From Candidatus Effluviviaceae Genus IV sp. (GTDB taxonomy: Bacteria > Joyebacterota > Joyebacteria > Joyebacterales > Joyebacteraceae), in the NCBI GenBank assembly GCA_014728245.1, contig WJLY01000282.1, positions 1 to 44,603 on the forward strand: DNA of 44,603 nt, written 5' to 3'. Below are positions 19,901 through 22,294 of this stretch, piece after piece. The notes under the pieces are model-generated. The model was not told the DNA's origin. It did not search any database and saw only the letters and a list, made by a program, of their open reading frames with translations. A program made the position numbers and the translations under genes. How positions within the stretch are numbered: position 1 is the stretch's first letter; the number at the start of each line of letters is the position of its first letter.

Positions 19901-22294
19901 CTAGATGTCGAGGTTGCGCACCTGCTTGGCGTGCGACTGAATGAACTTGCGGCGCGGCTCGACCGCGTCGCCCATCAATATGCTGAATGTGTGGTCCGCC
20001 TCGGCCGCGCTCTCTATCGTGACCTGCAGCATCACGCGGCGCTCCGGATCCATCGTCGTCGCCCAGAGCTGGTCGGGGTTCATCTCGCCGAGCCCCTTGA
20101 AGCGCTGGAGCGAGATCCCTTCCTTGCCGACGCGCTTCACCGTCTTCGCGAGTTCCTTCTCGTCGTAGCAGTAATGCTCCTGCTTGCCCTTCTTCACCCT
20201 GTAGAGCGGAGGCTGCGCTATGTAGAGATGCCCGGTCTCGATCAGCTCGGGCATGAATCGGTAGAAGAACGTCAGAAGGAGCGTCCTGATGTGGGCGCCG
20301 TCGACGTCGGCGTCGGTCATGATGATCGTCTTCCCGTATCGGAGCTTCGAGATGTCGAATCCCTCGCCGTCTCCGTCTCCCGTCTCGGAGACGCCGGTTC
20401 CCAGAGCGGTGATGATCGTGCCGATCTCGACGTTGTGGAAGACCTTGTCGAGCCGAGCCTTGAAGACGTTCAGGATCTTGCCGCGGAGCGGCAGGATCGC
20501 CTGAAACCGCCTGTCCCTGCCCAGCTTCGCCGACCCGCCGGCCGAATCGCCCTCCACCAGGTATATCTCGCAGTGCTCGGGGTCGGTGATGGAGCAGTCT
20601 GCGAGCTTCCCGGGCAGCGAGCCGCTCTCGAGCGCCGACTTCCGCCTCGTCAGATCCCTGGCCTTGCGCGCCGCGGCCCGGGCCTGCGAGGCCGAGACCG
20701 CCTTGGAGACGATCTTCTTCGCGACCGACGGCGTCTCCTCGAAGAACTCCTGCAGCCCCTCCCCCACGATCGACGCGACCAGACCCTTGACCTCGCTGTT
20801 CCCCAGCTTGGTCTTGGTCTGACCCTCGAACTGGGGCTCCTTCACCTTCACGCTGACGACCGCGGCCAGTCCCTCCAGACAGTCGTCGCCGGAGACCGAC
20901 TTCCCTCCCTTGCCCAGCAGGTTGTTCTTGTCGCCGTACGTGTTGATCGTCCGGGTCAGCGCCTGCTTGAACCCGGTCAGGTGAGTGCCGCCCTCGATCG
21001 TGTTGATGTTGTTGGCGTACGAGTAGATGTTCGCGCGGTAGGTATCGTTGTACTGGAGCGCCACCTCGACGACCGTTTCCTCTCTCGTCTTCTCGAAGTG
21101 GACGACCTTGGAATGCAGTCTCGTCGTGTTCTCATTGACGAACTTGACGAACTCCCGGAGCCCGCCCTTGAACCTGTACTCCGCCTTCTCACCGTCGCGC
21201 TCGTCCTCGATCGATATGGTGAGCCCAGCGTTCAGGAACGCCAGCTCTCTGCAGCGCGACGCGACCATCTCGAAGTCGAAGTCGACGTCCTCGAAGATCT
21301 CGCGGTCCGGGTAGAACGTAGTCTTCGTGCCGCTCTTCTTCCGCTTGCCGACCGGCTTGACCTTGCTCTCCGGCACTCCCCTCTGGTAGCTCTGCGCGTA
21401 CAGCGTCCCGTCGCGCGCGACCTCGACCTTGCACCACTCGGAGAGCGCGTTCACGACCGAGACGCCCACGCCGTGGAGGCCGCCCGACACCTTGTACGAC
21501 TGCTTGTCGAACTTGCCGCCGGCGTGGAGGACGGTCATCACGACCTCGAGGGCCGACTTCTTCTGCACCGGGTGCTTGTCGACCGGAATGCCCCGGCCGT
21601 TGTCCTGGACCGAGACGCTTCCGTCCTTGTGCAGCGTGACCGTGATCCTGTCACACGAGCCCGCCATCGCCTCGTCGATCGAGTTGTCGACCACCTCGTA
21701 GATGAGATGGTGGAGGCCCCGGCGGCCCGTGTCGCCTATGTACATCGCCGGACGACGCCTGACCGCCTCGAGCCCCTTCAGCACCTGGATGTGCTTCGCC
21801 TCGTACGACGCGCTTCCGTCGAGAGGCGGCGCGTCGAGGGGGAACTCGTCGACCAGGGCGCGGTCGATCGACTTGGCCTTATCGCCCGCGGGCGTCTGTT
21901 TCCTTCGGTCCGGCTTCTTCCCTGCGCTCTTCTTCGACGAGGGCTTCCCGGACGCGCCCTTCCTCGCGGCGCCCTTTCCGGCCTTCGCCTGCTTCTTCTT
22001 GCCGGTCGTCTGCTTCCCGCCCGCCGCCTTCTTCCCGGCGGAAGGCTTCTTCGGCGCGGACTTCTTCCCGGGGCTCGCCTTCTTCCGCGACGCGCCCCTC
22101 TTCTGCGAGCGCTTCCCGGACGCGCCCTTCTTCGCCGCGCCCTTTCCGGCCTTCGCCTGCTTCTTCTTGCCGGCCGCCTGCTTGCCGCCCGCCGCCTTCT
22201 TCTTCGGTCCCGCCTTCTTCTTTCCGGCGGACCTCTTCCCGGCCGCGGACTTCTTCTCGTCGGCCGCCTTCTTCTTTTTCTTCTTCTTTGCCAT
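19901..22294 (-). CDS. gyrB: DNA gyrase subunit B with a lysine-rich N-terminal extension of about 165 aa
   Basis: The canonical GyrB begins at [27 protein letters not shown], roughly 165-180 residues into the ORF. I chose ATG (MAKKKKKKK) at 22292-22294 because it sits 4 nt after the DUF721 stop. ATG at 22333 or TTG at 22351 are alternatives. Confidence 0.93.
21943..22033. repeat. copy 1 of an in-frame direct duplication inside the gyrB extension
   Basis: The 91-nt segment gcttcccggacgcgcccttc... recurs at 22111-22201 with 5 mismatches by my alignment. The offset is 168 nt, i.e. 56 codons. Confidence 0.85.
22111..22201. repeat. copy 2 of the in-frame direct duplication inside the gyrB extension
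   Basis: See copy 1. It encodes [30 protein letters not shown] versus [30 protein letters not shown]. Confidence 0.85.

Follow-up and report, generated by a model that had tools for sequence, protein, structure and literature searches.

A lysine-rich, disordered N-terminal tail on DNA gyrase subunit B shared across Candidatus Eisenbacteria, with a proposed role in DNA tethering

We identified a long polycationic tail at the N-terminus of DNA gyrase subunit B (GyrB) in a DNA stretch of 44,603 nucleotides (nt) from Candidatus Effluviviaceae Genus IV sp. (GenBank assembly GCA_014728245.1, contig WJLY01000282.1, positions 1 to 44,603). This whole stretch is hereafter called the window, and all coordinates refer to it. 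The gyrB coding sequence lies on the minus strand at 19901–22333, stop codon included, and its open reading frame translates to 810 amino acids (aa) from an ATG at 22333 or to 797 aa from a second in-frame ATG at 22294. Residues are numbered below from the ATG at 22294. In this genome the tail is real, in frame with the gyrase core and unavoidable by any canonical start codon, and it recurs in the close homologues of the protein, where composition rather than sequence is kept. Its charge and its place of attachment, on the arm that closes the ATPase gate, point to a putative role in holding DNA.

The tail proper, as defined by its composition and charge profile, an AlphaFold2 model and the lack of any Pfam family, comprises residues 1–141 (21872–22294, minus strand) and is predicted to be intrinsically disordered. 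Together with the junction segments that follow it, it places 163 residues before the arm tyrosine, Tyr164, when counted from the ATG at 22294, and 176 residues when counted from the ATG at 22333. The amino acids K, A, G, S, P, Q, R and T account for 90% of the 163 residues and for 96% of the first 140, in agreement with the initial annotation, which had described a stretch of about 165 residues of these letters ahead of the GyrB core. The 176-residue extension contains 51 Lys, 34 Ala, 23 Gly, 15 Ser, 12 Pro and 8 Arg residues, with an isoelectric point of 10.99 and a net charge of +48; the lysine share is 29% over the 176 residues and 30% over the 163. Seven consecutive 20-residue segments of the tail each carry a net charge of +7 to +8, followed by −4 from the end of the junction motif into the arm. 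AlphaFold2, run as a monomer model with a 77-sequence alignment, gave a predicted local distance difference test (pLDDT) score below 50 and no secondary structure at residues 1–162, while the ATPase, transducer and Toprim domains were modelled confidently. No solved chain in the PDB matched residues 1–160. Within the tail, two copies of a 111-nt direct repeat (21924–22034 and 22092–22202, minus strand) are 91% identical and spaced 168 nt, or 56 codons, apart in the same frame, and the tail grows by in-frame duplication.

The tail had been likened to histone H1. When it was searched alone, no Pfam family was matched at E ≤ 10, and the best NCBIfam match, NF038053 (Burkholderia H1-like protein), reached 21.6 bits against a cutoff of 80. 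The tail thus fails the histone-H1 family profiles, the Pfam models for linker histone, Hc1 and HC2 included, and the term "histone-H1-like" is appropriate for its composition but not for its family membership.

The identity of the gene is clear from its core. The product passed the TIGR01059 gyrB equivalog model (985.5 bits; cutoff 882.4) and failed the ParE models (parE_Gpos, 780 bits against a cutoff of 900; parE_Gneg, 609 bits against a cutoff of 723). Its Pfam domains occur in the order HATPase_c (192–330), DNA_gyraseB (378–547), Toprim (576–694), GyrB_hook (696–714) and DNA_gyraseB_C (725–786), that is, GHKL ATPase, transducer, Toprim and C-terminal tail domain in succession. The core comprises 634 residues, conserves the ATP-lid residues and contains 8% Lys. 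It begins with the canonical GyrB start, the N-terminal arm (21728–21808, minus strand), which aligns to E. coli GyrB from residue 2 onward; Tyr164 (codon 21803–21805) aligns with E. coli GyrB Tyr5 in the structures 6rks_B and 1ei1_A, and this column was invariant in 77 sequences. The gyrA gene follows 19 nt downstream of gyrB (17455–19881, minus strand) and encodes the Pfam domain DNA_topoisoIV and six DNA_gyraseA_C repeats. Its product carries a GyrA-box-like QARGGKG near residue 524, which marks the enzyme as gyrase rather than topoisomerase IV; this differs by one mismatch from the GyrA box consensus QRRGGKG. An acidic C-terminal tail is absent from this GyrA.

We then assessed where translation of the tail begins. 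Between 22294 and the Tyr codon (21805–21803) there is no in-frame ATG, GTG or TTG, and the only Leu or Val codons in that stretch are CTG, GTC, CTC and CTC; the initial annotation, which had named the CTG and the GTC, had likewise reported no alternative start. The same source had placed the start at the ATG at 22294. An in-frame ATG is indeed present there, but the ATG 13 codons upstream, at 22333, is the better candidate: a Shine-Dalgarno-like GGGGGAG lies 9 nt before it (22343–22349, minus strand), a GGAGG-like site is conserved 8–11 nt upstream of the first ATG in L001, L003, L084, L085 and L087, and about 40 homologue gene calls start M-[AT]-P-P-...-EKT-..-MAK. The true start is therefore probably 22333 rather than 22294, and the extension probably 176 rather than 163 residues long. 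The upstream gene dciA (DUF721; 22299–22670, minus strand; Pfam PF05258, 77 bits) ends in a TGA at 22301–22299, 4 nt before the ATG at 22294, and in every locus examined the dciA stop lies within a few nt of the second ATG, so that coupled re-initiation at 22294 is also possible. From either start the whole lysine-rich stretch is included. No RNA structure that might sequester the Shine-Dalgarno-like site was found at the dciA/gyrB junction (z-scores −0.7 to +1.0, none significant).

The overlap itself is a separate observation. The genes dciA and gyrB overlap out of frame, with two conserved candidate gyrB starts, in the window (22294–22349) and in L001, L003, L081, L084, L085 and L087. The 13 extra in-frame codons between the two starts (22295–22333, minus strand; MAPPVxTxEKTxK) are conserved while also encoding, in a different frame, the C-terminus of DciA.

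The reading frame of the tail was examined by codon statistics and by independent sequence data. The GC content at codon positions 1, 2 and 3 was 0.54, 0.56 and 0.90 in the tail and 0.59, 0.39 and 0.92 in the core. AAG outnumbered AAA by 49 to 2 among the Lys codons of the tail and by 52 to 0 among those of the core, and the choice of Ala, Gly, Ser and Pro codons was alike in both. In three independent public metagenome runs (sediment, microbial mat and tidal flat), near-identical contigs spanned 21762–21912, 21976–22349 and 22052–22561 without indels, leaving 21913–21975 as the one gap. Read placement at 80% likeness mostly drew unrelated lysine-rich or GC-rich contigs, and apparent indels at 22178–22183 were traced to a 161× unrelated contig that does not belong to this organism. 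Two plus-strand open reading frames across the tail (19820–22426 and 21702–22667) were rejected as coding, with the third-position GC signal lying in the minus-strand frame; they are the usual antisense frames of genes rich in GC at the third position. These results confirm that the tail is part of the gyrB reading frame.

To place the tail in its lineage, we compared the protein with its relatives by alignment. The approximately 60 closest database homologues were 72–88% identical in the core and belonged to Candidatus Eisenbacteria wherever they were named. An N-terminal extension was present in all 54 full-length close homologues (52–212 residues, median 134), so that the lineage-wide occurrence raised as a question in the initial annotation was borne out. 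These 54 extensions had a median of 26% Lys, net charges of +9 to +53 and a median of 9% hydrophobic residues. The ratio K/(K+R) was 0.86 in the tails compared with 0.55 in the cores, which, in a genome of 64% GC, points to selection for lysine itself. Orthologues were identical at 34% of aligned tail positions and at 82% of core positions; the reading frame was kept across all length variants, and no stop separated tail and core in any relative. Taken together, these comparisons show that the tail is conserved in composition, not in sequence, and point to selection for charge and lysine content. Three "short" close homologues of about 650 residues, which might have passed for tail-less proteins, proved to be artefacts: in L081 the tail is interrupted by a stretch of N, the contig of L082 begins inside the tail, and the frame of L083 is shifted close to the junction, with tail sequence upstream of the shift.

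The basic stretch is separated from the arm by a short conserved motif with the consensus [ST]-[ILV]-[DE]-x-x-V-V-[DE]-E-F-P-[LI] (hereafter SIDxxVVxEFPL). In the window it occupies residues 142–153 (21836–21871, minus strand) and is followed by a short acidic Pro/Asp linker (21806–21835, minus strand), the surrounding 20 residues of which have a net charge of −4. Of the 54 Eisenbacteria GyrBs, 53 have the motif, 7–22 residues ahead of the arm Tyr, and all 162 outgroup GyrBs lack it; it is missing from the subclade of P0056, L001 and L003. It may serve for docking or interaction. A GTG codon falls within the motif in some relatives. The view of the initial annotation that the tail is obligatory is therefore upheld for the present genome, in which no canonical start skips it, but does not extend to those relatives.

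The tail-bearing Eisenbacteria formed one clade in a neighbour-joining tree of the core computed without support values, and the gene order dciA-gyrB-gyrA was the same in L084, L085 and L087. The GyrBs of Zixibacteria, Calditrichota, KSB1 and Ignavibacteria have 5–30 residues before the arm Tyr. A scan of genome contigs recovered two Eisenbacteria loci only; the remainder came from Ignavibacteria and similar lineages and served as tail-less outgroups. In a search of representative sequences with residues 1–260, the best 150 matches were GyrB fragments found via the core, and no tail-bearing lineage was seen among them beyond the Eisenbacteria fragment P0121; the "extensions" in these matches were mostly mis-called starts or frameshifted junk. 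A protein search with the tail only scored none of 8000 word-sharing candidates, as low complexity defeated the method. A six-frame scan of the window for lysine-rich stretches returned the gyrB tail only, plus the naturally basic L34, and the same scan of the 20-kb origin regions of five relatives found no other such stretch. DnaA, DnaN, RecF, DciA, GyrA and ParB carry no such tail. The tail is thus specific to GyrB among the genes of the origin region.

Similar tails were found in a second clade. Within the KSB1/Zhuqueibacterota GyrB clade, six of about 119 relatives listed (P0107, P0276, P0277, P0279, P0346 and P0356) have N-terminal extensions of 90–116 residues, which start with MAK(K), contain 21–30% Lys and are followed by an acidic stretch. 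The locus L086 (5001–7187) belongs to this subclade with lysine-rich GyrB extensions. These extensions share with those of Eisenbacteria the position, the richness in lysine and the acidic stretch that follows; unlike the latter, they are shorter, less extreme and without SIDxxVVxEFPL. In the tree, the KSB1/Zhuqueibacterota clade does not group as the sister of Eisenbacteria, which suggests an independent origin, and its tail apparently arose separately. In-frame GTG, TTG and ATG codons occur near the core in this clade, and gene callers disagree there (short calls P0278 and P0366); with such alternative starts the tail is not obligatory in KSB1/Zhuqueibacterota. The loci L005, L006 and L007, with open upstream stretches of about 100 residues, were not accepted as tail-bearing: their status is uncertain, and NCBI annotates the protein on the L007 contig (P0366, 645 aa) from an ATG further downstream. 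P0107, P0276, P0277 and P0279 are the less ambiguous members of the clade. Five tail-less GyrBs from outgroups of the Fibrobacteres–Chlorobi–Bacteroidetes (FCB) group (P0080, P0108, P0085, P0087 and P0111) have short basic N-termini of 11–27 residues, for example MAQKKKAETAQKK..., MAQKKKAETAQKKTAQKTRKK and MAEKKKKRGHS, and such N-termini may be the seeds or precursors of the long tails.

The position of the tail bears on its possible function. In the GyrB43 structures (Wigley and Brino, 1EI1), Tyr5 belongs to the N-terminal arm, which wraps around the other protomer and touches the ATP bound to it. Since Tyr164 takes the Tyr5 position at the tip of this dimer-crossing arm, the two tails of the A2B2 enzyme would emerge from the top of the N-gate, on its outer side. 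We favour, with moderate confidence, a reading in which the tail binds DNA non-specifically and acts as a tether at the ATPase gate, raising affinity and processivity. In this proposal, the polycationic tail is joined via SIDxxVVxEFPL to the arm that crosses onto the partner ATPase domain, and the two tails of an A2B2 complex would project from the top of the ATP-operated N-gate, where they would bind DNA by electrostatics without sequence preference and increase the local affinity for DNA. The enzyme would then stay on the nucleoid, the transported segment would be captured or held, and gyrase would become more processive and more salt-tolerant. A parallel would be offered by actinobacterial topoisomerase I, whose lysine repeats stabilise its DNA complex.

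Several points weigh against the tether. DNA binding by the tail is deduced from charge and from analogy, the case for these GyrBs is derived from sequence, and the phylum is uncultured. The monomer model places neither the tail nor the junction motif within the dimer. A 63-nt part of the tail (21913–21975) is uncovered by the independent contigs, a search for RNA-seq runs that would bear on co-transcription and the transcription start listed none, and the GTG in the motif of some relatives makes a tail-less isoform possible there. A broader version of the tether, which we regard as speculative and rather improbable, would have the gyrase of Eisenbacteria double as a nucleoid-associated, histone-like protein: two tails of +35 to +50 would hold it permanently on the chromosome and help to compact or bridge DNA, and at the N-gate they could hand a nearby duplex over as transported segment, shifting the balance of supercoiling, relaxation and decatenation, while docking of SIDxxVVxEFPL would couple the position of the tail to ATP-driven gate closure.

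Two other readings accept that the tail is translated and retained. Its main partner might be something other than duplex DNA, with effects through hindrance or timing of N-gate dimerisation, binding of RNA or polyphosphate, formation of condensates, or recruitment of a partner via SIDxxVVxEFPL. Such a role would fit the place of attachment, precisely on the arm by which the ATPase gate is closed, as well as the acidic stretch after the basic one; it would also fit the conservation of a specific motif in 53 of 54 tails, for which a tether acting by charge alone would have no use. Polyphosphate is reportedly also discussed in relation to bacterial chromatin and H1-like proteins (PMC11894788). 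However, the DNA substrate is the most abundant polyanion within reach of a topoisomerase, the closest characterised precedent, the lysine repeats of TopA, acts on DNA, and the sequence points to no particular other partner, so we hold this reading to be unlikely, if worth keeping in mind. The tail might instead be a tolerated, largely neutral low-complexity expansion, produced at the 5′ end of an essential gene by slippage of AAG repeats and by duplication. Fast sequence turnover (34% identity), the length range of 52–212 residues and the recent 168-nt in-frame duplication are what such drift would leave behind, and the short basic N-termini of tail-less outgroups (MAQKKK..., MAEKKKKRGHS) could be its seeds. 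Against this, the tail was never lost among 54 orthologues spanning 72–88% core identity, Lys is used over Arg against the GC bias (0.86 vs 0.55), hydrophobic residues stay low (median 9%), the junction motif is conserved, and a similar tail arose in a second clade; we consider neutrality a doubtful explanation.

The remaining two readings remove the tail from the working enzyme. Mature GyrB would lack it if a non-canonical codon close to the junction served as start (the CTG of Leu147 or the ATC of Ile143) or if the protein were cleaved, the freed tail perhaps serving as a histone-like protein. Near-cognate codons do occur at the junction, and in relatives the VV of the motif is often encoded with a GTG, which some gene callers take as the start (P0006 and P0278); the HU-like Gac protein, made from within the gyrA gene of Borrelia, offers a loose parallel to a freed tail. 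The window, though, has no Shine-Dalgarno-like sequence ahead of the junction, and in all relatives the frame is open and continuous with the core, which a separate product would not need, with no stop splitting the two in any of them; the conservation of the junction motif as protein sequence also argues for its translation within GyrB, and we judge a tail-less mature enzyme very unlikely. Finally, the tail could be an artefact of mis-assembly, joining the gene of a small basic protein to gyrB, or of a wrong frame. Assemblies of relatives do break at the tails (the gap of N in L081 and the frameshift in L083), and 63 nt lack independent coverage. The same architecture is nevertheless found in more than 50 independent assemblies from different studies, the third-position GC periodicity runs on into the core, the contigs of three independent runs agree without indels, and the dciA-gyrB-gyrA synteny is shared with L084, L085, L086 and L087, so that this reading is nearly excluded and close to refuted.

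Tails of this kind have well-described counterparts on other proteins. The lysine repeats of actinobacterial TopA stabilise the enzyme–DNA complex, confer processivity and end in acidic residues (PMC5714199). Like the C-terminal domain of Streptomyces and Mycobacterium TopA, the GyrB extension is a long, low-complexity topoisomerase tail rich in Lys, Ala and Pro, clade-wide and variable in length, and its basic stretch likewise ends in acidic residues (net −4 after segments of +7 to +8). In contrast, TopA is a type IA enzyme with the tail at its C-terminus, whereas GyrB, the ATPase subunit of a type IIA enzyme, bears its tail at the N-terminus, beside the N-gate; there is no homology between the two. 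In Deinococcus, the N-terminal lysine-rich extensions of Dps1 and HU act in DNA association (PMC6300522). Mycobacterial HupB, Streptomyces HupS and Streptomyces DdbA are reported to be nucleoid proteins with lysine-rich tails, and DdbA to consist of an N-terminal H1-like domain fused to a DksA-like domain (PMC3643593, PMC11229371 and PMC9756944). The GyrB tail resembles HupB, HupS, Deinococcus HU and Dps1, and DdbA in its K/A/P composition and disorder, the tails of those proteins have a role in DNA association, and the tail is also N-terminal in Deinococcus HU, Dps1 and DdbA. Those proteins, however, are architectural or regulatory, whereas the GyrB tail is longer than most and sits on the catalytic subunit of an ATP-driven enzyme. 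The C-terminal domain of histone H1, chlamydial Hc1 and Hc2 and the Burkholderia H1-like protein are alike in amino-acid composition and charge density, but family membership fails. The compositional resemblance to the K/A/P tails of HU, topoisomerase I and H1-like proteins, proposed in the initial annotation, has held.

Among the enzymes of its own type, canonical GyrB (E. coli, Thermus and Mycobacterium; 6RKS, 1EI1 and 1KIJ) has the same four core domains and an adjoining gyrA, but the solved canonical GyrBs start 1–20 residues before the arm Tyr, unlike the GyrB of Eisenbacteria. In eukaryotic topoisomerase II, the C-terminal domain is disordered, lysine-rich and fast-evolving; it modulates binding to DNA and chromatin and is dispensable for core catalysis. 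That domain sits after the C-gate and bears nuclear localisation signals and phosphorylation sites. Both it and the GyrB tail are found on type IIA enzymes, but at opposite termini and with independent origins.

In a full-text search of the literature, no account of a lysine-rich tail at the N-terminus of GyrB turned up, consistent with the unfamiliarity of such a tail noted at the outset, nor did any paper linking Eisenbacteria with gyrase. The sequences are already in public databases, annotated merely as DNA gyrase subunit B. Disordered basic tails are familiar from other DNA enzymes; the attachment of such a tail to the ATPase arm of a type IIA topoisomerase, and its conservation throughout a phylum, seem not to have been described before. 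Few molecular machines have been studied as thoroughly as gyrase, which is also a major drug target, and to our knowledge mechanistic work on it has so far been done entirely on enzymes whose GyrB starts at the dimer-crossing arm. Here a polycation of about 150 residues is found on that arm across a phylum, at the gate where transported DNA enters. This offers a natural experiment on the tuning of DNA capture and processivity in a type IIA topoisomerase, and on the repeated recruitment of disordered basic tails by DNA enzymes (TopA of Actinobacteria, topoisomerase II of eukaryotes, and GyrB in two FCB lineages). The finding has a practical side too: short-read assemblies break at the repetitive tail, and gene callers differ in where they set the start and report truncated GyrBs of about 650 aa. 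As gyrB is a common phylogenetic marker, its breakage-prone tail implies that the gene is often truncated or mis-started in metagenome-assembled genomes of these lineages.

The window as a whole is a bacterial replication-origin region, with gene content on both strands. On the minus strand it contains dnaA (25519–26880), dnaN (23841–25010) and recF (22631–23797), and on the plus strand of the same origin region lie rpmH, yidC, jag, mnmE, mnmG, rsmG, parA and parB. The cumulative GC skew reaches its minimum, where it turns, at approximately 25–27 kb. DnaA-box-like 9-mers with at most one mismatch occur 13 times in the window compared with 1.9 expected, and four such sites lie at 25376–27151, in the dnaA-dnaN and dnaA-rpmH intergenic regions. 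The region 25376–27151 is likely the origin of replication, oriC.

Other genes of the window were noted in passing. Downstream of gyrA, a 575-aa protein (15693–17420, minus strand) combines a cation-efflux (CDF) domain with an SPFH/Band-7 domain and is followed by two further SPFH genes (14751–15632 and 13693–14745), an arrangement conserved in L084 and L085. A cluster at 4066–13394 (minus strand) resembles formate hydrogenlyase or a group-4 NiFe hydrogenase and is syntenic in L084, L085 and L087; it encodes Fer4_22, an FAD/NAD-binding protein, a molybdopterin oxidoreductase, Fer4_11, NADHdh, Complex1_30kDa, Complex1_49kDa/NiFeSe and Proton_antipo_M. Genes for subunits I, E and C/AC39 of a V/A-type ATPase occupy the window's right end (38829–43088, plus strand).

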